From contig CAZJIN010000001.1 of assembly GCA_964545955.1 (NCBI GenBank), positions 1-29,063 on the forward strand: DNA of 29,063 bases, in the 5' to 3' direction. A model generated the notes under the pieces. That model saw only the letters and a list, made by a program, of their open reading frames with translations, was not told the origin of the DNA and made no database searches. Origin of the DNA: an uncultured Sediminispirochaeta sp. Lineage in GTDB: Bacteria > Spirochaetota > Spirochaetia > DSM-16054 > Sediminispirochaetaceae. The position numbers and the translations under genes were made by a program. This document shows, in pieces, positions 15,108-26,133 of this stretch. The number at the start of each line of letters is the position of its first letter. The stretch's first letter is position 1.

Positions 15108-15728
15108 TTAGCTGTTTTTACCTTTTTGAGCGAGGGCGATAATCTCTTCAATTGTGTCGTTCCACTTTCCCTCATCACGGTACCAGACGGCCATGTCCTC
15201 CAGGAACTTGCGGTACAACTTGGCGAATTCCTTTTCCGCTTCGGGGTCCTCGGCCTTTTTTGCGTAGAGCTCCATGAGACGGGGATTTCTTTCTTTCCAT
15301 TCAGTTTTCAGGGGGGCTACCGTTTCAGGTGCTTCGACCCATCGACCGATCTCTTTCCCCTCACCATCCCACAGCGAGACTACTGGAATATGTACGGTAC
15401 CCTCGGAGCGATAATGTTCTTTTAGTTCCGGATGATGCTCCTCGTCAAAAACGCGAAAGGGGACGTTCGTCTCCCGAAAAAGGGAACGGAGGATGGGAAG
15501 GTTGCACGCCCAATCGCCGCACCAGCCTTCGGTGTGGGCTGTCGCTGTTACCGGTTGGGGATGGCCTTGCAGGGCGTTCTGTAAAGCTTCAATGTGAGAA
15601 CTCTGCACTACCGCGTCACGGGTCAGAGAACGAACCAGGGAACGGTAGCTTCGCAGATCCCTGAGGTAGTTTTCAATTTCACTACCGGATTCAAAATAGT
15701 CTTGTGTCATATATGTAAATTCTTTCAT
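15108..15728 (-). CDS. Thioredoxin-fold protein (Thioredoxin_9-like, single-Cys WCGD motif)
   Basis: TEGWCGDWACNLP, cis-Pro-like HIPVV, EIGRWVEAP. Start uncertain (15743, 15728 or 15710). Confidence 0.7.
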   Translation of the reverse strand: MKEFTYMTQDYFESGSEIENYLRDLRSYRSLVRSLTRDAVVQSSHIEALQNALQGHPQPVTATAHTEGWCGDWACNLPILRSLFRETNVPFRVFDEEHHPELKEHYRSEGTVHIPVVSLWDGEGKEIGRWVEAPETVAPLKTEWKERNPRLMELYAKKAEDPEAEKEFAKLYRKFLEDMAVWYRDEGKWNDTIEEIIALAQKGKNS

Positions 15729-15845
15729 AGTTATAATATACAAAAAAATTGCACCACCGTGTACACAAGAACTTCTCCCTTGAAAAAAATCGGGTTTTCA
15801 GTCATTCTGTCCCACCGACATAGAATCAATCTCAAGGAAACGCCG

Positions 15846-17384: not shown

Positions 17385-17457
17385 TAGTTCTCCTTCCATT
17401 TTGTAAAAATCCCGAATGTTAGTACATTGTAATAAGTTCATTCAAGGAGGATTAAGT

Positions 17458-17823
17458 ATGGCTGATTTTCATGAATCCATTGATCTATTGTCGTCGGATG
17501 CAAAAAATTATTCCCGGGCTCTCAAAAGTCTGAAGGAAGAAGTAGAGGCTATTGACTGGTACAACCAGCGGGTGGATGTCTCAGATGACCCGGCCCTTGC
17601 GGCAATCATGGCCCACAACCGTGATGAGGAGATTGAGCACGCCTGCATGGCCCTGGAGTGGCTTCGCCGCAACATGCCCGAATGGGATGAGGCGTTGAAG
17701 ACTTTTTTATTCACCACTGGAGATATCACCGAACTCGAGGAGGCCTCAGAGGGAAGTGAAGGGGGAGGTACTTCCGCGGGGAGCGGAGAAAACTCAAGCC
17801 TTGGAATCGGCGGAAAAAGCTAA
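17458..17823 (+). CDS. Encapsulin-associated ferritin-like protein (EncFtn/Flp cargo)
   Basis: EEVEAIDWYNQR and HNRDEEIEHA ferroxidase motifs; Gly/Ser/Glu linker; C-terminal SLGIG cargo-loading peptide; SD AGGAGG. Confidence 0.93.
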   Translation: MADFHESIDLLSSDAKNYSRALKSLKEEVEAIDWYNQRVDVSDDPALAAIMAHNRDEEIEHACMALEWLRRNMPEWDEALKTFLFTTGDITELEEASEGSEGGGTSAGSGENSSLGIGGKS

Positions 17824-17839
17824 GAAGGAGTAGATGAGT

Positions 17840-18631
17840 ATGGATATATTAAGAAGGAATTTAGCACCAATTTCAGACCGTGCGTGGGACGAAATTGACG
17901 AACTGGCCAGGACATATCTGAGGAATTCCCTGTCCGCCCGTTTTATGGTGGATGTGTCGGTATCCGGGAGCTGGGACCGGCAGGTTTTGACAGGAGGTCG
18001 GTTGAAGGACATAAAGGAGAAGGGGAAGGTTTCCTATGGGCTGTATGACGTGAAGCCCCTTCTGGAGTTGAGAATTCCCTTTGAACTTGATGTGTGGGAG
18101 ATGGATAACGCGGTGAGGGGATCGCGGGACGTGGATCTTGCCCCCGTCGAAGAGGCCGCTGAGGCGCTTGCAGGTTTTGAGGACAGGGCGTTATTCGAGG
18201 GTTTGAAGGATGCCGGGATTAACGGCTTATTCGAGGCGGCAGCGAACAGGGGAAAGATCGAGTTTCCCGGTGAACAGGGAAAGATTGCCGGTGCCGTATC
18301 CGCGGGTATTGCCGAGTTGATTAGAAATGGTATTGAAGGCCCCTGCAATCTCGCCGTTCCCATGGAAGTATGGCAGAACATCAAAAGCTTCGCGGGGGGT
18401 ATGCCCCTGGAACAACATCTGGAGAAACTTCTTGGGGGTGCGATTATTCCTTCACGACATCTGCAGAAGCCCCTGCTGCTCTCAGCTCGGGGCGGTGACT
18501 TCGAGATGAGTATCGGACAGGATATATCGATCGGGTATTCCTCCCATAGCACCAGGACTGTTTCACTCTATTTCACAGAATCCTTCACCTTCCAGGTCTT
18601 CGAACCACGGGCTTTACTGGTGTACAAGTAG
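17840..18631 (+). CDS. Family 1 encapsulin shell protein (Linocin M18-like)
   Basis: MDILRRNLAPISDRAWDEI, PLLELRIPFELDVWEMDNA, EDRALFEG, RGGDFEMSIGQDISIGY, LYFTESFTF. Alternative start at 17834. Confidence 0.95.
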   Translation: MDILRRNLAPISDRAWDEIDELARTYLRNSLSARFMVDVSVSGSWDRQVLTGGRLKDIKEKGKVSYGLYDVKPLLELRIPFELDVWEMDNAVRGSRDVDLAPVEEAAEALAGFEDRALFEGLKDAGINGLFEAAANRGKIEFPGEQGKIAGAVSAGIAELIRNGIEGPCNLAVPMEVWQNIKSFAGGMPLEQHLEKLLGGAIIPSRHLQKPLLLSARGGDFEMSIGQDISIGYSSHSTRTVSLYFTESFTFQVFEPRALLVYK

Positions 18632-18757: not shown

Positions 18758-18799
18758 CCCAAGACTGAAGGCCCGAGACCGAAGTCCCGAGACCGGAGT
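18758..18799. repeat. Three degenerate 14-bp tandem units
   Basis: CCCAAGACTGAAGG / CCCGAGACCGAAGT / CCCGAGACCGGAGT. Confidence 0.7.
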
Positions 18800-18816
18800 A
18801 TCGATGGCTTCGAGGT

Positions 18817-20076
18817 TTATGCCCTGGCCCCTTCCTTCTCAGCTACCAGTTCCTGAAGCTGCTTCTTGACCGCGGGAACGGAACAATCGGTGCTGATCGA
18901 TGCCACCTCACCGTCGATGGTGTAAAATATGGTCATCGGTTCTACATCACAGCTCAAGCGGTCGCAGAGGGATTTGCCCTTGTACAGGTCGATTACATTG
19001 AGTTTAACCTGGTCCTCGTGTTCCTTCTCGATCTCCTGGAGGGTGGGCAGAAGCTCACGGCTCGGGGCGTCGATGGCGGAATAGATATAGATCATGCCGA
19101 TTTTGTCCTTCTGCATGATCTGGTTCTCGAAAACCTCTTCTTCGGCAATACACTTCTCGGCGTTCACGCCGGCGATGGCTCCGTCACCGACGGCTGTCGC
19201 GACCTGTTTGAGGCCCTTTTCACGGACGTCGCCACAGGCGTAGACTCCCGGAATTCCGGTTTCCATCTCCTCGTTGGTGATCACATAGCCCTGTTTGCTC
19301 AGGTTGAGGATCCCCTTGAAGATTTCGGTATTGGGTTCGTAGCCGATGAACTCAAAACAGGTGTCGACCGTAACAGGATCAAGTTCGCCGGTCTTAAGGT
19401 TCTTCAGAACCACCGTATCCAGATGCTCTTCACCCTCGAAGGAATCCACGACGGTGTTCCATTTGAACTCCATCTTCGGGTGGTTGAGGGCCTGGTCCTT
19501 GGCAATTTCATTGCAGTCCATCTTGCCGGTGTCGTGGATGACCGATACGATCACCTTTTTGGCAAATTTGGCCAGGAACATTCCTTCTTCGATAGCGGCG
19601 TCGCCGCTCCCTATGACCATGACGGTCTTGTCGGTGTTAGCGGCGGCGTCACAGGTGGCGCAGAAGGAGATGCCCTTGTCGAAGAGGTATTTTTCTTCGT
19701 TCTTTGCCTTCGTGATTCTGGGGCGACCCCCTGATGCCACAATGACGGTTTTAGCCTCGTAGATATTTCGGAAAGTTTCTACGGTTTTTTTCTCCGATTT
19801 GAAATCGACGGTTTTTACATCGGTCAACTTGAAGGTCACTCCGAATTTTTCCGCCTGTTTCTTAAACAGGTCCATGAGGGCCAGGCCGCCGGTCCCTTCC
19901 GGGAAGCCGGGAAAGTTTTCAATCTCGTTGGTATAGGTAGCCAGGCCTCCGACGAGGGCCTTTTCAATGATAAGTGTTTTTAGCCTGGCACGACCGCAGT
20001 AGATCCCGGCCGTTAGGCCGGCTGCGCCTCCGCCGATAATCACTACATCGTATTCTTCACGTTTTTTCTCACGCAT
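18817..20076 (-). CDS. trxB: Thioredoxin reductase-like flavoprotein with a C-terminal thioredoxin-like extension
   Basis: IIGGGAAGLTAG, GISFCATCD (CxxC), VIGSGDAAIEEG, TGIPGVYACGDV, KQVATAVGDGAIA, plus about 100 extra C-terminal residues. Confidence 0.85.
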   Translation of the reverse strand: MREKKREEYDVVIIGGGAAGLTAGIYCGRARLKTLIIEKALVGGLATYTNEIENFPGFPEGTGGLALMDLFKKQAEKFGVTFKLTDVKTVDFKSEKKTVETFRNIYEAKTVIVASGGRPRITKAKNEEKYLFDKGISFCATCDAAANTDKTVMVIGSGDAAIEEGMFLAKFAKKVIVSVIHDTGKMDCNEIAKDQALNHPKMEFKWNTVVDSFEGEEHLDTVVLKNLKTGELDPVTVDTCFEFIGYEPNTEIFKGILNLSKQGYVITNEEMETGIPGVYACGDVREKGLKQVATAVGDGAIAGVNAEKCIAEEEVFENQIMQKDKIGMIYIYSAIDAPSRELLPTLQEIEKEHEDQVKLNVIDLYKGKSLCDRLSCDVEPMTIFYTIDGEVASISTDCSVPAVKKQLQELVAEKEGARA

Positions 20077-20119
20077 GTATAAAAATCCTCCTGAATTAGT
20101 CTTTTTTTTAAAAAATATC

Positions 20120-20653
20120 CTACATAAAATACTTTACCAGCAGCTTGCTTCCCACGATTGCCCCGAGGAAGATGAATACTCCGAATACCCATCCCGAAAG
20201 GGAGAAAGAAGCGATACCGCTGTAGAGAGCTCCGATGTTACACCCGTAACCGATCCGGGCTCCGTAGCCCATCAGAAGTCCGCCGAGAATCGCGGCTATG
20301 ACCTGCTTCATGGACTTGATCTTCTTGAGCTTGAATCCCGAAGCAAGCAAGACCGCCACCAGAGCGCCGAAAATGATACCTATATTACGAATACTCCCAC
20401 CGTGGTTCAAAACACCGCCCTCAAGGGTCCTCTGAGCGCCTTCACTGGAGAAGTAGTACCACTTGTCCACGCTGCCGCCGAAGGCCTCGAAGATCCATGC
20501 GCCCCAGTTGGCCAGGACTCCGGAAACACCCCAAGGGCTACCGGTGGTGACCAGGGTAACGATCTGAAATACGGAGAGTAGAACAGCCCCGGTCAAATAC
20601 GGCCAGGCACCTTTGATCCACTCTTTGTAATATTTATTGTCTTTAATACCCAA
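20120..20653 (-). CDS. YeeE/YedE thiosulfate-transporter family protein, C-terminal-half type
   Basis: TTG start with SD GGAGG; SPWGVSG, GIIFGALVA, GGLLMGYGARIGYGCNIGALYSG. Confidence 0.85.
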   Translation of the reverse strand: MGIKDNKYYKEWIKGAWPYLTGAVLLSVFQIVTLVTTGSPWGVSGVLANWGAWIFEAFGGSVDKWYYFSSEGAQRTLEGGVLNHGGSIRNIGIIFGALVAVLLASGFKLKKIKSMKQVIAAILGGLLMGYGARIGYGCNIGALYSGIASFSLSGWVFGVFIFLGAIVGSKLLVKYFM

Positions 20654-20672
20654 AACGGTTGCCTCCGTATGA

Positions 20673-20900
20673 TTATTTCGCTTTTTCTATGATGACTTCC
20701 CATTCGCCGTCGTCGACTTCTTCGACTTCGACGTTGTGACCCTCTTTGCGGGCCCATTCGGGAACGTTTTTCATCGCGCAACTGTGGTCAATCTGTACGA
20801 TCAGTACATCACCGACTTCCATTTCTTTGAGTTTGTTCTGTGCCTTTACGAGAGGTACCGGACAGGCTTCCCCATAACAGTCAAGTTCTATTTCTTTCAT
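20673..20900 (-). CDS. TusA/SirA-family sulfur carrier (YeeD/YedF-like), copy 2
   Basis: LDCYGEACPVP (CPxP), IDHSCAMKNVPEWARKEGH. Confidence 0.92.
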   Translation of the reverse strand: MKEIELDCYGEACPVPLVKAQNKLKEMEVGDVLIVQIDHSCAMKNVPEWARKEGHNVEVEEVDDGEWEVIIEKAK

Positions 20901-20928
20901 ATTTCTATTCCTTCCTTTTTTAGTGTGC

Positions 20929-21156
20929 CTATTTCGCTTTTTCTATGATGACTTCCCATTCGCCGTCGTCGATTTCTTCGACTTCAACGTTGTGTCCCTC
21001 TTTGCGGGCCCATTCGGGAACGTTTTTCATCGCGCAACTGTGGTCAATCTGTACGATCAGTACATCACCGACTTCCATTTCTTTGAGTTTGTTCTGTGCC
21101 TTTACGAGAGGTACCGGACAGGCTTCCCCATAACAGTCAAGTTCTACTTCCTTCAT
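20929..21156 (-). CDS. TusA/SirA-family sulfur carrier (YeeD/YedF-like), copy 1
   Basis: Same motifs; 222/228 nt identical to copy 2. Confidence 0.92.
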   Translation of the reverse strand: MKEVELDCYGEACPVPLVKAQNKLKEMEVGDVLIVQIDHSCAMKNVPEWARKEGHNVEVEEIDDGEWEVIIEKAK

Positions 21157-21168
21157 TCTGGTATCTCC

Positions 21169-21879
21169 TTATGCTTCTTTTTCTTTACGGTCGGCCCATT
21201 TGTCCGCTGCAATCCAAAGCAGCGCGATAATGAGCAATTGAATGATAACTGCGCCGATCCATCCGAACAGATCGGGCAGAAAAACGGCTTTTCCCTTCAA
21301 TATCACATTGAGCTTCCACCACCCAAAATCGTGGGCGCCCCACAGTGATCCTACGACAAAGAAGAAGAGTGAGAGGATCTGCATGGTAAATCCCTCACCG
21401 ACTCTCATCAGTGTTCCCGAGGCACATCCACCGGAGATTACCATTCCGATACCGAACATAAATGCTCCAATAGCGGTGGCGAGACTCACCGGTACCACAT
21501 ATCCCTGTCCGGGAAGGGGAAGTCCTCGCAAGTAGGCACCGTATTTGACGGCGATGAAACCGATCGATGTGATCGCAAAAGCCGTGAGAACGGCCTTCGT
21601 GAGATTTGTACCACCGGTCAAATATGGATCCCGCATCGCTGCGGTGAAACAGAATCGTGCGTGCTGCAGAATATATCCGAAGGCAAGCCCGGTGATCCAG
21701 AACAGTACCAACTGCTCATTGCGGGTTCCAAGGTAAATCCCGATCGCCACTATAAGTACGAGCAGTGCTACACCAAAGGGTAGCTGGTTCTTTTTCTTCT
21801 TTCGGCTTCTCGAACGGGATGAACGGCGAATGCTGCTCCCGCCGGAAGACACGGTTGTACCTGAATTTACGTCACTCAA
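21169..21879 (-). CDS. YeeE/YedE thiosulfate-transporter family protein, N-terminal-half type
   Basis: TTG start; GLAFGYILQHARFCF, GAFMFGIGMVISGGCASGTLMRVGEG. Confidence 0.88.
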   Translation of the reverse strand: MSDVNSGTTVSSGGSSIRRSSRSRSRKKKKNQLPFGVALLVLIVAIGIYLGTRNEQLVLFWITGLAFGYILQHARFCFTAAMRDPYLTGGTNLTKAVLTAFAITSIGFIAVKYGAYLRGLPLPGQGYVVPVSLATAIGAFMFGIGMVISGGCASGTLMRVGEGFTMQILSLFFFVVGSLWGAHDFGWWKLNVILKGKAVFLPDLFGWIGAVIIQLLIIALLWIAADKWADRKEKEA

Positions 21880-21899: not shown

Positions 21900-22125
21900 T
21901 AGAGTTTATTTACACCCTTAATATACAATATTACGAAATATTTCTCAATAAAAATATATAAGAATATTTTTATTTTTTGTAAAGTGAATATAACCACTAT
22001 TCTATTCACGATTTTTGTTATAGACGTAAAAAGATAGGGAGTATGCTGAAGTTCCGCGCAAGGTGGTTCGTATTTTGACGGATACAGTTGCTCTTTTTTT
22101 GCTCTGATTCTAAAATAGCGGTATG
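21900..22125. promoter_or_regulatory. AT-rich divergent control region with inverted repeats
   Basis: AATAAAAATAT-N6-ATATTTTTATT (21947-21974), GAAATATTTC palindrome (21935-21944), GTGAATA-N12-TATTCAC (21984-22009). Confidence 0.55.
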
Positions 22126-22150: not shown

Positions 22151-23110
22151 ATGAACCATTTTCCCGATAGAGATACACTCCTGGCTGCCTTTCAGAGAGT
22201 GCGACCCCATGCGCGACGGACCCCGGTACTGACCTCAACGACCTTTGACGATATGACCGGGGGGCGGCTTTTTTTCAAATGTGAGAATTTTCAGAAGGGC
22301 GGGGCTTTCAAATTCCGCGGAGCGGTGAACTCGGTGTTCTCCCTGACCGACGAACAGGCGGGCCGAGGGGTTGCGACCCACTCGTCGGGCAATCATGCCC
22401 AGGCGGTCGCCCTGGCGGCCCGAATGAGGGGGATTCCCGCCGTCATCGTGATGCCTGAGAATGCCCCTCAGGTGAAGGTAAACGCCGTGAAGGGCTATGG
22501 TGCGGAGGTTGTTTTCTGCCCTTCCACTCTGAAAGACCGCGAGGAGAGTCTACGTAAGGTCGTGGACCGGACGGGGGCGGAGTTTATTCATCCTTCCAAT
22601 GATCTGAGGGTGATCGCGGGGCAATCGACTGCGACCATCGAACTGCTTGAAGAGGTGGGAGATCTCGATATAGTCCTTGGACCTGTAGGGGGTGGCGGCC
22701 TCATGAGCGGTACTTCCCTGGCGGTGCGGCACTTCGGCAAGGGACAGAAGGTGATAGGTTGTGAGCCCGCCGCGGCGGATGACGCGTATCGCTCCTTTCA
22801 AGGGGGGCGTCTCGTGTTTCCGGAGCATCCCGATACGGTGGCCGACGGTTTGAGGACCTCCTTGGGATCGAACACCTTTCCCATCCTGTGTGAAAATATG
22901 ACCGATATAGTGCTGGTGGAGGAAGATCAGATCATCGACGCGATGAAACTGGTATGGGAACGGATGAAGATCGTGATTGAACCTTCGTCCGCGGTACCGG
23001 TGGCGGCGGTCCTGAAGGGAATTGTCAATGTGAAAGACTTGAAGGCGGGGATTATTCTATCCGGTGGCAACGTGGACCTGGATGCCCTGCCCTGGTATAA
23101 GGAGCGATAG
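22151..23110 (+). CDS. PLP fold-type II serine/threonine dehydratase-racemase family enzyme
   Basis: KCENFQKGGAFKFRGA (PLP Lys), SSGNHAQA, GGGGLMSG, ADGL, EPSSA, SGGN. Confidence 0.9.
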   Translation: MNHFPDRDTLLAAFQRVRPHARRTPVLTSTTFDDMTGGRLFFKCENFQKGGAFKFRGAVNSVFSLTDEQAGRGVATHSSGNHAQAVALAARMRGIPAVIVMPENAPQVKVNAVKGYGAEVVFCPSTLKDREESLRKVVDRTGAEFIHPSNDLRVIAGQSTATIELLEEVGDLDIVLGPVGGGGLMSGTSLAVRHFGKGQKVIGCEPAAADDAYRSFQGGRLVFPEHPDTVADGLRTSLGSNTFPILCENMTDIVLVEEDQIIDAMKLVWERMKIVIEPSSAVPVAAVLKGIVNVKDLKAGIILSGGNVDLDALPWYKER

Positions 23111-24226
23111 ATGGCTTGGACTACACAGATAAGGAGACCCACTCTGGTGATCCGCCCCGACAGGGTCAAGGAAAACATTCGGGTGATGAGGAAGAAGGCC
23201 GAGAGGAGTGGGGTCCTTTTTCGGCCCCATTTCAAAACCCATCAAAGCGCCCTGGTCGGTGAGTGGTACAGGGAACAGGGGGTGAAGTCCATTACAGTTT
23301 CTTCGGTGAAAATGGGTATGTACTTTGCCTCCCATGGGTGGGAGGATATCACCATAGCCTTTCCGGTCAATACCCGGGAGATTGATGATATAAACGACCT
23401 GGCCGGGAGGGTCAAATTGAACCTACTCGTGCTTACCCCTGAGATTGCCGAGCAGCTGAGCCGGGAGCTTGTCAATCCCGTGGGGATCTGGATAAAGGTG
23501 GATACCGGGTACGGACGAACGGGGATACCCTGGGGCAATCGGGAGGCTATAGTCGACCTGAGCAGGAAGATTGAGGAACTTCCCGGTATAGAGTTTCAGG
23601 GGCTCCTCACCCATGCGGGGCACACCTACCATATATACGACGTTGGAGAGAGGACACGGATTTTTAGGGGTATCGCCGATGGGATGGGGCAGCTCCGTGA
23701 CGGCGTACTGGCTGCGGGATTGGAACAATGCCTCATTTCCGTGGGAGACACACCTGGAGCGACTGCCGCTGAAGATTTTTCCGGTGTTGATGAAGTGCGA
23801 CCGGGAAACTTTGTCTATTTTGACGCGCAACAACTGCACCTGGGTTCCTGCGATGAAACTGAAGTCGCGGCGGCAGTGGCCTGCCCTGTTGTGGCAGTCC
23901 ACAAGGACCGCAGCGAACTAATCCTCTATGGAGGGGCTATTCATCTATCCGCCCAACCGGAGGACCACCCCGAAATTGAAGGACAGAGAATGTACGGGTA
24001 CGTGGTTGAAGCCAGTCCCGACGGCTGGGGGGCGGTAGACCGTTACAACTACGTGAAATCGGTGAGCCAGGAGCATGGGGTCGCGCGGGTGGATGCGATG
24101 TTTCTCTCAAAGGTGAAGCCCGGGGATCTGGTCGGCGTGATCCCGGTGCACAGTTGTCTTGCGGTAGATCTCCTGGATCGCGGCATTACCACCGGATCTC
24201 AGTTTTTTGATCTGGATATGGTATGA
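23111..24226 (+). CDS. PLP fold-type III DSD1 / D-threonine aldolase family enzyme
   Basis: RPHFKTH, KVDTGYGRTG, HAGHTY, RPGNFVYFD, SQEHG, PVHSC. Confidence 0.88.
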   Translation: MAWTTQIRRPTLVIRPDRVKENIRVMRKKAERSGVLFRPHFKTHQSALVGEWYREQGVKSITVSSVKMGMYFASHGWEDITIAFPVNTREIDDINDLAGRVKLNLLVLTPEIAEQLSRELVNPVGIWIKVDTGYGRTGIPWGNREAIVDLSRKIEELPGIEFQGLLTHAGHTYHIYDVGERTRIFRGIADGMGQLRDGVLAAGLEQCLISVGDTPGATAAEDFSGVDEVRPGNFVYFDAQQLHLGSCDETEVAAAVACPVVAVHKDRSELILYGGAIHLSAQPEDHPEIEGQRMYGYVVEASPDGWGAVDRYNYVKSVSQEHGVARVDAMFLSKVKPGDLVGVIPVHSCLAVDLLDRGITTGSQFFDLDMV

Positions 24227-25059
24227 GATACGCCCTTCACAACGGTACGCTCATAGATAAAGCCCGGGCATTGCTCCCCGTGGAGCAACCGGAAGTGCTG
24301 ATGAGCTTCGGGGTATACGAATCTCTCAAGGTGAAGGGGGGAAGGGCTCTCTTTGTGGAAGAACACCTGGAGCGCCTGTTCGAGTCGGCCCACATATTGA
24401 GGCTTGAGCATCCCTTCGATGAAGCGCATTTTATTGACGGGGTACACCGCCTGGTGGAGGCCAATGGTGTTGACGAAGCCACCCTTCGGATACAGTTGTT
24501 CGGGGGAAGGGAACCCTTTTACTACGCCTTCTATTCTCCCCTTCCCAAGTACCCCTCTGAGTATTATCGAGAGGGGGTGGATGTGTTGACTTACCCGGGG
24601 GAGAGGCTTTTTCCAAGGGCTAAATCAAGCTGCCTCCTCTTGAATTACATGGCAAGGAGGGAATCATCGGAGAAGGGGGCTCTGGAAGCGCTTTTTGTCG
24701 ATAGGAATGGTTTGGTTCCGGAAGGGGCCAGGAGCAACCTCTTTGCCTTCGGTGGGGGTACTCTGTACACCGCTGACGAGAACGTGCTCAACGGGGTTAC
24801 ACGAAAACACATTCTCGAATGCTGTGCGGAAGAGGGGGTGAAGGTAGTTTTTGAGTCTCCGGTTCTGAAGGAAATCCTCGGGAAAAGCTTCGATGGCCTG
24901 TTTATTTCCAGTACGAGCATGGGGGCAATTCCACTCAAAACGATAGATGGACAGACGGTGCTGAAGGACCCTGAAGGGCGAGAGAATATGATCTCCCTCA
25001 CGGACAGGTTGAACGCTTATCTATCGGCGAGGGAAGAAGCTGACGCGACTAGGCCATAG
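24223..25059 (+). CDS. PLP fold-type IV aminotransferase (D-amino acid/BCAT/ADC lyase family)
   Basis: GVYESLK, HLERLFESA, RAKS (PLP Lys), EGARSNLF, LNGVTR, STSMG. ATGA overlap with the upstream gene. Confidence 0.88.
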   Translation: MRYALHNGTLIDKARALLPVEQPEVLMSFGVYESLKVKGGRALFVEEHLERLFESAHILRLEHPFDEAHFIDGVHRLVEANGVDEATLRIQLFGGREPFYYAFYSPLPKYPSEYYREGVDVLTYPGERLFPRAKSSCLLLNYMARRESSEKGALEALFVDRNGLVPEGARSNLFAFGGGTLYTADENVLNGVTRKHILECCAEEGVKVVFESPVLKEILGKSFDGLFISSTSMGAIPLKTIDGQTVLKDPEGRENMISLTDRLNAYLSAREEADATRP

Positions 25060-25191
25060 AGCCTTCGAAGGAGGCTGATAATGGTCAGCTCTTGCCCGCC
25101 TTGTCGGGGAAAAATTAGGTAAAAATTGAAAATGAAGGTGACAACCGGTGACGGTATCCATTACACTTCCCCATATAGGGAGACATAGGAG

Positions 25192-26133
25192 ATGAGTGGT
25201 CATGTGAAGGATTTTCCAACAGTGGTAATTCCCTTTGAATCCAGCTGTGAATCCGAGACCTGTCAGGATGTGTGTGTGTATCTTCGCCCGGAAACGAACG
25301 GCGTGCAGGTCGAAAGTACTATGATGCGCACAATTCAGGCGACACCACTCTACAGGGAAAATGTAAAGCTGGTGTATCTGGCTAATCTTCCCGGTGAGTT
25401 TATCAGCCGGCGCAGGATCATTGAGCACCATTATCGGCTCAAGATCCTCTTTGCGAAAAAGGGGAAACGGCTTTTCACGGAATATATGCGACGGGAATTT
25501 TCAAGGTATTTCAAGACGGATTTTGAAGAAGCAAGGATTCTTGGTTCCTTCGAAGCTATGAAAAAACTCGGTTTCTCACGGGAAGACCTCTTCAATATAT
25601 GGGTAGATAAAAAGGAGATCCTCCATCTCAACGGCCAGACTATCAAACACTTCGGTGAGTACTATATCATCAACTACGATATCCCCGCTCTTTTACTGAA
25701 GAACCGGACCAACACCGATGTGGCGGTTATGATCCTGAGGACAACACTCGGTCCAAAGACCGTTCACACCCTGATGATGGATATGGTTGATGCGCTTAAA
25801 CGCAGTGGGTATTTACATGAATCGGATAATTTTACACGGGTATTCCATTTTTCCCGAAGTCCCTTTGAGCAAATTCTGGACAGTATCGGTTTTCTCTACG
25901 ACGCGGAGGGCAGTCATGTCGCCCTCAGGAAGATCCGTTTTTATAATTACCTTCTCAAAAAAGGAATTGACGCGCTGACTATCAGAAAATTCCTGGAATA
26001 CCCGGTTTTCGGCTTTGAGAACGAGAAGGGCAGGTATTTTGAAGAGACAATCTACGCGGCCACTTATGGGCTTGGATATGAAGACGCGTTCAGGAAGTTA
26101 CAAACAGCTAAGACGCAGGTCCTTCTCGATTAG
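25192..26133 (+). CDS. Hypothetical protein, possibly a divergent nucleoside-diphosphate-kinase-like fold
   Basis: 313 aa, SD AGGAG. VYLRPE, IIEHHY and VFHFSRSPFE resemble NDK IKPD, LKEHY and HGSDS. CDS confidence is high; the NDK call is tentative. Confidence 0.5.
   Translation: MSGHVKDFPTVVIPFESSCESETCQDVCVYLRPETNGVQVESTMMRTIQATPLYRENVKLVYLANLPGEFISRRRIIEHHYRLKILFAKKGKRLFTEYMRREFSRYFKTDFEEARILGSFEAMKKLGFSREDLFNIWVDKKEILHLNGQTIKHFGEYYIINYDIPALLLKNRTNTDVAVMILRTTLGPKTVHTLMMDMVDALKRSGYLHESDNFTRVFHFSRSPFEQILDSIGFLYDAEGSHVALRKIRFYNYLLKKGIDALTIRKFLEYPVFGFENEKGRYFEETIYAATYGLGYEDAFRKLQTAKTQVLLD

Follow-up and report, generated by a model that had tools for sequence, protein, structure and literature searches.

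A split YeeE/YedE-type channel linked to TusA carriers and an atypical thioredoxin reductase-like flavoprotein: a putative module for sulfur import and reductive release in Sediminispirochaeta and other anaerobes

Gene organization of the locus

The window analyzed in this study is a stretch of 29,063 nucleotides (contig CAZJIN010000001.1) from the genome of an uncultured Sediminispirochaeta sp. It contains five genes on the minus strand, in the order YeeE1 (positions 21169-21879, 236 aa, TTG start), TusA copy a (20929-21156, 75 aa), TusA copy b (20673-20900, 75 aa), YeeE2 (20120-20653, 177 aa, TTG start), and a gene for a thioredoxin reductase (TrxR)-like protein, designated TrxRL (18817-20076, 419 aa). 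The intergenic gaps are 12, 28, 19, and 43 nt, and a Shine-Dalgarno-like purine run lies ahead of all five genes. The five-gene order with gaps of 12-43 nt that the first-pass annotation had described was recovered in the open reading frames, and the Pfam assignments agree with it.

A promoter-like site (TTGAGA, 17 nt spacer, TATATT; 10/12 matches) was identified on the minus strand at positions 21920-21948, about 40 nt upstream of the YeeE1 start codon and inside an AT-rich divergent intergenic region; its position is its sole support, and the count of promoter-like sites in the region was not above shuffle expectation. A terminator scan revealed no convincing terminator downstream of TrxRL, and an Rfam scan of the whole window found no riboswitch, T-box, or other RNA family. 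A functional tie of the operon to a nearby encapsulin/ferritin pair and a Thioredoxin_9 gene was considered and rejected, as the encapsulin pair adjoins the operon only within the genus (loci L119 and L120) and not in other families.

Channel halves YeeE1 and YeeE2

YeeE1 and YeeE2 correspond to positions 1-156 (E 3.7e-30) and 167-310 (E 1e-32) of the Pfam Sulf_transp model, respectively. Alignment of YeeE1 with YeeE of Spirochaeta thermophila (6LEO, E 5e-14) placed Cys77 of an RFC motif at C22 and Cys152 of a GGC motif at C91, and alignment of YeeE2 with 8J4C/6LEO (E 2.6e-10) placed Cys138 (YGC; GCN motif) at C293. The 6LEO alignment thus bears out the earlier proposal that the three YeeE cysteines are split over two polypeptides, two of them in YeeE1 and one in YeeE2. 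These cysteines were invariant in the orthologues (90/90 for YeeE1 and 98/98 for YeeE2). Hydropathy indicated about six hydrophobic segments in YeeE1 and four to five in YeeE2. Additionally, a basic tail at residues 18-30 and a further transmembrane helix at residues 33-53, both N-terminal in YeeE1, match the central linker helix of YedE/FdhT.

In the NCBIfam comparison, the YedE_FdhT model (NF033796, cut-off 350 bits) matched YeeE1 over model positions 178-383 (95.7 bits) and YeeE2 over positions 3-159 (99.6 bits), while the TsuA model (cut-off 400 bits) matched YeeE1 over positions 7-116 (72.2 bits) and YeeE2 over positions 243-322 (54.2 bits). A second TsuA-family profile (NF041049 and NF052577 were tested) gave 63.7 and 28.5 bits for the two halves against a cut-off of 645, and TIGR04112 gave 32 bits against a cut-off of 200. 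By profile score, the predicted channel therefore resembles the selenium-linked YedE/FdhT more than TsuA, yet it stays under every curated cut-off. The Sulf_transp fold and the C22/C91/C293 set of the TsuA/YeeE family are present, but the family cut-off score and the single chain of about 330-350 aa are not. The N- and C-half labels originally given to the two proteins fit the chain convention of TsuA, but not that of YedE, which carries the two halves in the opposite order.

Two related loci contain the halves in this opposite order. In L114, they form a single, YedE-like chain between the same TusA and TrxRL genes, and in L124 they adjoin, with a possible stop between them, and are flanked by the same TusA and TrxRL. 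The L114 chain aligned with YedE/FdhT end to end and in the same half order (223.4 bits; cut-off 350). This natural single-chain orthologue was modelled as a proxy for the two-half channel; the AF2 model had a pTM of 0.84, and its matches at a probability of 1.00 were YeeE structures only. That the two halves belong together, as had been assumed at the outset, was corroborated by these results: the halves are always adjacent, they lie side by side in opposite order in two genomes, and the single-chain model matches only YeeE structures.

TusA carriers

Both small genes encode proteins of the Pfam TusA family (E about 1e-25; 8e-25 for copy a). Three cysteines are conserved: of 108 sequences, 104 have Cys8, and all 108 have Cys13 (in a CPVP motif) and Cys41. 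The nearest solved structures to copy a were TM0983 and YeeD of S. thermophila, whereas both of these proteins lack Cys8 and Cys41. The conservation of all three cysteines supports the view of this TusA as a putative redox-recycled carrier protein. Copy a was closer to E. coli TsuB (36% identity, E 9e-19) than to YedF (29%, E 2e-9); against the TsuB profile, the adjacent TusA-like gene scored 52 bits (cut-off 147.5).

The DNA of copy b is 97.4% identical to that of copy a. Where a genome has two copies, they share 90-100% identity and in every case resemble each other more than any copy from another genome, indicating a recurrent, optional tandem duplication that is incidental to the system. 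The five genes, including the twin TusA carriers that had first been emphasized, are present here, but the conserved unit consists of four components, since a second TusA gene was found in only 15 of 93 loci.

TrxRL flavoprotein

Residues 1-313 of TrxRL (19138-20076, minus strand) form a flavoprotein module with the low-Mr thioredoxin reductase fold, in which a CATC redox pair (19651-19662, minus strand) is located. Residues about 322-419 (18817-19113, minus strand) form a predicted C-terminal thioredoxin-fold domain. Pfam assigned Pyr_redox_2 and a weak Thioredoxin match (E 8.9e-5, below the cut-off), and the tail of the L048 orthologue matched Pfam Thioredoxin at E 3.4e-13. The best solved match was 2Q7V (E 1.3e-77; Foldseek E 2.8e-39). 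Foldseek searches with the TrxRL model returned only ordinary TrxRs over residues 1-313 and left the tail without explanation; in the AF2 model, the tail shows a beta-alpha-beta-alpha-beta-beta-alpha fold with a mean pLDDT of 87.6.

Like low-Mr TrxRs, TrxR-thioredoxin fusions (NTRC), and NADH-dependent Cp34/AhpF-like enzymes, TrxRL has FAD and NAD domains and a CATC pair. It is 44% identical to Deinococcus TrxR and, as in NTRC, has a thioredoxin-fold domain at its C-terminus. However, it scored 314.8 bits against TIGR01292 (thioredoxin-disulfide reductase), below the cut-off of 343.45, and while the GSGDAA motif is kept, HDTGKMD replaces the NADPH motif HRRxxxR. Among 88 TrxRL orthologues, CATC was invariant, GSGDA/SA was kept, and HRRxxxR was replaced by H-D/E in all, with a general form of H-D/E-x-G-x-M-D. 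TrxRL accordingly shares the two-domain flavoprotein fold and the CxxC in the NAD domain with TrxRs, but not their cut-off score or HRRxxxR. In contrast to NTRC-type proteins, which have a redox-active CxxC in the C-terminal thioredoxin domain, TrxRL has DAPS at this position, and the tail usually lacks an active-site cysteine among the orthologues (68 without Cys, 14 with xxxC, and 6 with CxxC). A further difference from TrxR and NTRC is the constant linkage of the TrxRL gene to genes for a sulfur channel and a carrier.

Recurrence and variants of the gene set

The same gene set was found in about 100 anaerobe genomes, and because of this recurrence the arrangement is far beyond chance. The core set of one half, one or two TusA genes, the other half, and TrxRL recurs in 17 spirochaete relatives. 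In all 75 of the TusA-containing loci whose downstream sequence could be read, TrxRL followed the channel; most of these loci are from Clostridia, and the others include Paenibacillus and spirochaetes. A canonical TrxB (360 bits) is encoded elsewhere in the present genome, on another contig. Both results support the initial description of TrxRL as a dedicated reductase, distinct from the housekeeping enzyme. In the same survey, the halves were adjacent with no TusA between them at L055, L058, and L089, and TrxRL was absent in all three; two more loci (L116 and L117) likewise had adjacent halves without an intervening TusA and without TrxRL. An even sample of 150 Spirochaetota added just one locus with TusA, channel, and TrxRL, in which the halves are in opposite order. 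Fused forms also occur in Treponema. The operon is also carried by Sediminispirochaeta smaragdinae, whose P0024 matches the L016 gene at 100% identity, and by Fusibacter tunisiensis.

Comparison with known transport systems

The thiosulfate system TsuA/TsuB (YeeE/YeeD; E. coli and S. thermophila; PDB 6LEO, 8J4C) has in common with this locus the Sulf_transp fold, the cysteines C22, C91, and C293, an adjoining TusA-fold partner with a CPxP cysteine, and the order of the halves, which along the operon is that of the TsuA chain. It differs in that the channel is here encoded by two genes that enclose the carrier gene or genes, YeeE1 has one more helix at its N-terminus, and the halves score far below the TsuA cut-off (72 and 54 bits against 400). 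Moreover, a dedicated TrxR-like reductase is present here, whereas there is none in the E. coli TsuA/TsuB locus.

YedE/FdhT and YedF (a putative selenium transporter and carrier; NF033796, TIGR04112) provide the best profile match for both halves and also combine a channel with a TusA-fold partner. The fused orthologue spans the whole YedE/FdhT model in the same half order, and the central linker helix of that family is kept at the N-terminus of YeeE1. In contrast, the fused protein remains below the cut-off (223 bits against 350), the halves in the present genome are reversed and split, the occurrence of the operon does not depend on SelD, and its TusA resembles TsuB more than YedF.

Precedents for a channel encoded by two neighbouring genes, with a proposed heterodimer, are PmpA/PmpB of Serratia and Hyphomicrobium and the archaeal split YedE (PMC11582611, PMC5322559). 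PmpA and PmpB are each about 130 aa, with four helices and one cysteine (PMC11582611), and lack an equivalent of C22 and the linker helix. The present halves, at 236 and 177 aa and with all three cysteines, do not have this PmpAB architecture; unlike PmpA and PmpB, they are located on either side of TusA and linked to a reductase.

Proposed function in sulfur import and reductive release

We propose that the operon encodes a self-contained module for sulfur import and reductive release, a reading to which we assign a probability of roughly 55%. On the basis of homology, YeeE1 and YeeE2 would assemble into one channel of the YeeE/YedE fold with a path lined by the three cysteines. By analogy with the solved YeeE-YeeD complex, in which the carrier waits at the channel mouth, thiosulfate or another sulfane-sulfur species (e.g., polysulfide) may be handed to Cys13 (CPxP) of TusA at the cytoplasmic mouth. 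A second TusA cysteine, Cys8 or Cys41, could then resolve the bound thiosulfonate or persulfide, yielding sulfite, sulfide, and a TusA disulfide, which the CATC pair of TrxRL would re-reduce. The electrons probably come from NADH, because the motif for the 2'-phosphate of NADPH is replaced by H-D/E. The usually cysteine-free thioredoxin-fold tail might serve as a docking domain, which is a guess. The sulfide could feed cysteine synthase, and CysK/M is encoded in the genome. In fermenters such as S. smaragdinae, it could alternatively leave the cell, and the pathway would act as an electron sink.

YeeD has been reported to break down thiosulfate via its cysteine only with added reductant, and its cellular electron route was stated to be unknown (Ikei et al., PMC11073785). 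The work on YeeE-YeeD left open the electron source for freeing sulfide from carrier-bound thiosulfate, for which TrxRL may be a concrete candidate. S. smaragdinae produces sulfide by reduction of thiosulfate and elemental sulfur (PMC3035371). Our search of a literature library found no paper joining YeeE, TusA, and thioredoxin reductase. No siroheme sulfite reductase was found in the present genome; therefore, thiosulfate-derived sulfite would have to be exported, which counts against the proposed function. The profile placement nearer to YedE/FdhT, the selenium-type LysR neighbours in Clostridia, and the enrichment of SelD among the best matches, described below, also weigh against it.

Alternative functions

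The proximity to YedE/FdhT, which both halves and the fused orthologue matched best in NCBIfam and which is tied to SelD in the literature (PMC5322559), raises the alternative of selenium acquisition, in which a YedE/FdhT-like channel would import selenite or other selenium species, TusA would take the role of YedF, and TrxRL would produce selenide for selenophosphate synthesis. In Clostridia, the LysR regulator adjoining the locus fits the selenium-associated LysR model best (161-221 bits), and of the 30 best-matching genomes checked, 24 had SelD, compared with 20 of the 150 genomes in an even sample of Clostridia. All of these profile scores, however, are below the curated cut-offs (350 bits for YedE/FdhT, 250 bits for the selenium-associated LysR), and the TusA is nearer to TsuB than to YedF. 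Furthermore, SelD was not found in the present genome (80% complete), in 13 of 18 operon-bearing spirochaete relatives (nine of those 13 at least 91% complete), or in five of the eight genomes of close split orthologues in the even sample of Clostridia (completeness of at least 90%); the operon thus departs from the almost exclusive occurrence of YedE/FdhT in SelD genomes. To our knowledge, there is no specific selenium use without SelD. With no SelD in this genome or in 13 of the 18 relatives, a selenium-only role is unlikely, and it was rejected as the main reading on these counts; the selenium alternative put forward in the first-pass annotation is disfavoured in this lineage. The raw SelD enrichment keeps selenium acquisition as a rival, though an improbable one.

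Export rather than uptake would be compatible with the sulfidic, anoxic habitats of the operon carriers, as judged by the sources of the metagenome-assembled genomes. The channel would then release sulfite or reactive sulfane sulfur, and TusA and TrxRL would clear persulfides under sulfide or polysulfide stress. For PmpAB-type relatives, a non-assimilatory role in transporting sulfur ions or zero-valent sulfur has been discussed (PMC11582611), and an exporter role for YedE was suggested by Lin et al. However, the characterized relatives TsuA/TsuB of E. coli, S. thermophila, and S. aureus mediate uptake, and no gene for a persulfide dioxygenase, sulfide:quinone oxidoreductase, or CstR/BigR-type sensor was found in or beside the operon, so that we regard detoxification as quite improbable. 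It is very improbable that TrxRL is merely co-transcribed and acts on other substrates as an NADH-dependent reductase of disulfides or peroxides with a general role, comparable to Cp34/AhpF or NTRC. Its score against the AhpF-homologue model (305.6 bits) is almost equal to that against the TrxR model, and its architecture resembles TrxR-thioredoxin fusions; on the other hand, it is linked to the channel in all 75 readable TusA-containing loci, in two phyla and in different gene orders, and is absent exactly where the halves have no TusA between them. In addition, the operon has no peroxiredoxin gene, and the TrxRL tail lacks CxxC in 82 of the 88 orthologues.

Implications for sulfide-producing fermenters

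If sulfur import and reductive release is the function of the operon, the four-component module might, tentatively, represent the missing cytoplasmic route to sulfide from thiosulfate or elemental sulfur in fermentative, non-sulfate-reducing sulfide producers. This possible route would proceed via a YedE-like channel, a three-cysteine TusA, and an NADH-linked TrxR-like enzyme that regenerates NAD+, thereby serving as an electron sink; S. smaragdinae, Fusibacter, and Dethiosulfatibacter are examples of such sulfide producers. A genome study of Fusibacter detected no known gene for thiosulfate reduction (PMC10386464). We found no siroheme sulfite reductase in S. smaragdinae and F. tunisiensis, both of which carry the operon, and no molybdopterin enzyme at all in F. 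tunisiensis. At the genetic level, the module might underlie the reduction of thiosulfate and sulfur by fermenters of oil fields and sediments that have none of the known enzymes, an activity relevant to souring and corrosion.

The survey also places a reductase gene beside a channel and a carrier over two phyla and in several gene orders, and its natural split forms join the chain orders of TsuA and YedE. The 'selenium' YedE family has a sister clade that is large, unnamed, and independent of SelD.

Organization of the operon and the split channel

Five open reading frames on the minus strand of the window (18817-21879) formed the arrangement described in the first-pass annotation, with order and gaps recovered. 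These encode YeeE1, the first half of a split YeeE/YedE-type channel (21169-21879, 236 aa, Pfam Sulf_transp positions 1-156), two copies of the small sulfur carrier TusA (20929-21156 and 20673-20900, 75 aa each, Pfam TusA), the second channel half YeeE2 (20120-20653, 177 aa, Sulf_transp positions 167-310), and a thioredoxin reductase (TrxR)-like flavoprotein, TrxRL (18817-20076, 419 aa, Pfam Pyr_redox_2 and a weak Thioredoxin match). The genes are separated by 12, 28, 19, and 43 nt (5' to 3'), and a purine-rich ribosome-binding stretch precedes each start. About 40 nt ahead of the YeeE1 start, in the AT-rich divergent intergenic region, is a promoter-like site (TTGAGA, 17 nt, TATATT); a scan of the region as a whole gave no more sites than expected by chance. 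No Rfam elements were found in the window.

Cys77 (RFC) and Cys152 (GGC) of YeeE1 aligned with C22 and C91 of the solved Spirochaeta thermophila YeeE, and Cys138 (YGC) of YeeE2 with C293, bearing out the proposal that the three cysteines of YeeE are divided between two polypeptides, two in the first half and one in the second. These residues were invariant in 90 orthologues of YeeE1 and 98 of YeeE2. Escherichia coli YedE has the two halves of the thiosulfate channel TsuA in circularly permuted order, with the GCN half first and the half bearing R-x-x-x-CF and GGC second. Accordingly, the C-terminal half of the NCBIfam YedE/FdhT model matched YeeE1 (95.7 bits) and the N-terminal half matched YeeE2 (99.6 bits). 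The TsuA profile scored lower (72 and 54 bits, respectively), and all of these scores were far under the curated cut-offs. By hydropathy, YeeE1 opens with a basic tail and one additional hydrophobic helix, which coincide with the central linker helix of the YedE model.

The reverse order of the two halves was also encountered in some relatives. In a Clostridia genome (locus L114), a three-cysteine-type TusA precedes a 422-aa single-chain protein, after which comes a TrxRL 54% identical to that of the window. The 422-aa chain matches YeeE2 in its first part (47%) and YeeE1 in its second (40%), its basic linker corresponds to the YeeE1 N-terminal tail, and its alignment with the YedE/FdhT model spans both from end to end (223 bits, cut-off 350). 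An AF2 model of this chain (pTM 0.84), standing in for a multimer model of YeeE1 and YeeE2, retrieved only YeeE structures from the PDB at probability 1.00, with all others at 0.25 or below, and shows the two halves as parts of one predicted YeeE-fold unit. A distant spirochaete (L124) has the same order; its match contains a TAA, and thus the halves may be separate genes there. In several Clostridia (L112, L113, L116, and L117), a split YeeE/YedE-like locus and a single-chain one in the TsuA order lie within about 10 kb of each other. These paired loci in Clostridia suggest repeated fission, fusion, and permutation within the YeeE/YedE family.

The TusA carrier and the TrxRL reductase

The nearest solved structures to the operon TusA were TM0983 and S. 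thermophila YeeD, and E. coli TsuB was a closer match to it (36%, E 9e-19) than YedF was (29%, E 2e-9). Cys13 of the CPxP motif and Cys41 were kept in 108 of 108 sequences and Cys8 in 104, whereas counterparts of Cys8 and Cys41 are missing from the S. thermophila and Thermotoga proteins. The twin carriers noted in the first-pass annotation are present in the window, but conservation does not extend to the second copy, as only 15 of 93 loci had two. In each two-copy locus, DNA identity between the copies was 90-100% and exceeded that to any copy elsewhere, a pattern that fits repeated duplication or gene conversion.

By sequence and fold, TrxRL is a low-Mr TrxR (2Q7V, E 1.3e-77, with agreement from Foldseek), and its score (314.8 bits) is below the TrxR cut-off (343.45). 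Across 88 orthologues, CATC was invariant and GSGDA/SA was kept, and H-[DE]-x-x-x-M-D always replaced HRRxxxR. The HRRxxxR motif of E. coli TrxR binds the 2'-phosphate of NADPH, and NADH-using Rossmann folds typically have an acidic residue at this position; we therefore infer that NADH is the probable electron donor of TrxRL. The C-terminal tail was modelled as a thioredoxin fold, with DAPS at the CxxC position in the window. Since this position contained no cysteine in 68 orthologues, one in 14, and CxxC in only 6, the tail is not a conserved redox center, and we propose a docking function for it. A canonical TrxB (360 bits) is encoded on another contig of the source genome, so TrxRL is a second, specialized enzyme. 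Cysteines 188 (about 19511-19513) and 240 (about 19355-19357) of its NAD domain were kept in 83 and 87 of the 88 orthologues, respectively, whereas cysteine is absent from both aligned positions of the Deinococcus TrxR (2Q7V).

Conservation and spread of the module

The source genome, a 2.95-Mb MAG (80% complete), shares its family with Sediminispirochaeta smaragdinae; an annotated protein of that species, P0024, and the TrxRL of locus L016 are identical. The same gene string occurred in 17 of 40 relatives, and a wider scan with one genome per species yielded 80 loci (two interrupted by contig ends), mostly from Clostridia with some Paenibacillus and spirochaetes, in which the channel halves were 58-85% identical to those of the window. 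TrxRL came next in all 75 loci with TusA between the halves and readable downstream sequence, and was absent from all three loci with adjacent halves and no intervening TusA. The clade was rare among 150 evenly sampled Spirochaetota. Because the clostridial copies were as similar to those of the window as the copies of other spirochaete families, we read this distribution as lateral spread. Two genes are added at the clostridial loci, one for a divergent LysR regulator and one for a distant third TusA (L048, 2582-3693; L114, 910-2043; also L112, L113, and L115-L117), neither of which was present at the spirochaete loci. The top NCBIfam match of this regulator was the selenium-metabolism-associated LysR (161-221 bits, cut-off 250).

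Sulfur or selenium

SelD was not found in the source genome (80% complete). By raw counts, uncorrected for relatedness, SelD was missing in 13 of 18 operon-bearing genomes among the relatives sampled (nine of these 13 at least 91% complete), was no commoner with the operon (5/18) than without it (8/23), and occurred in 24 of 30 genomes checked from among the best matches elsewhere versus 20 of 150 genomes in an evenly drawn sample of Clostridia, in which three of eight close split orthologues were in SelD-positive genomes. Thus, the co-occurrence check revealed no dependence on SelD, although SelD was enriched among the best-matching genomes. These results show that the module can do without SelD and speak against a role confined to selenium; it may handle selenium in addition. 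Cysteine synthase was encoded in the source genome and siroheme sulfite reductase was not found there, so of the products of thiosulfate the organism would be able to use the sulfide derived from the sulfane atom and not the sulfite. Three molybdopterin oxidoreductase genes of the same genome (contigs C368, C69, and C47) had open frames of about 710-918 aa despite no SelD being found; if formate-dehydrogenase-like, these enzymes would have to be of the cysteine type.

Proposed mechanism and physiology

The YeeD cysteine binds thiosulfate and sulfide is released with a chemical reductant, the cellular electron route being stated as unknown (Ikei et al., PMC11073785). The linkage of TrxRL to the channel and TusA suggests that it could be this route for carrier-bound thiosulfate in this clade. 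The channel would hand thiosulfate or sulfane sulfur to Cys13 of TusA, the adduct would be resolved by a second TusA cysteine, and the CATC of TrxRL would re-reduce the carrier. The relay model put forward in the first-pass annotation is largely upheld by comparative evidence. Split YeeE/YedE channels and TusA partners are already known (PMC11582611, PMC5322559); we found no description in the papers searched of an obligatory TrxR-like partner with a degenerate thioredoxin tail, of the three-cysteine TusA carrier of this module, or of membership in a SelD-independent sister clade of YedE, to which the channel appears to belong.

S. smaragdinae, which carries the operon, reduces thiosulfate and sulfur to sulfide (PMC3035371). 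Fusibacter species do so without any known gene for it (PMC10386464); Fusibacter tunisiensis carries the operon (L061), and neither a molybdopterin enzyme nor a siroheme reductase was found in its genome. A dissimilatory, electron-sink role of the module is therefore a live possibility.

Genomic surroundings

Divergent genes for PLP enzymes (fold II PALP, D-serine-dehydratase-like, and class IV aminotransferase) occupy 22151-26133, and these and the next ORF adjoin the operon in three of the family's genera (L118-L121 compared), with individual members absent from some genera. An encapsulated-ferritin and encapsulin pair (17416-18631) converges on the TrxRL 3' end and adjoins the operon in two further genomes of the genus (L119 and L120), and not in Sediminispirochaeta. 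As the PLP genes were not beside the operon in two other families, nor the encapsulin pair in other families, both were taken as inherited synteny. A Thioredoxin_9-family protein is encoded about 3 kb past the operon 3' end (15108-15743, minus strand), with no conserved linkage seen. Just past the TrxRL stop (about 18760-18800), a short direct repeat comprises two copies of CGGTCTCGGG, one variable base, and CTTC; a terminator-like hairpin was not detected.
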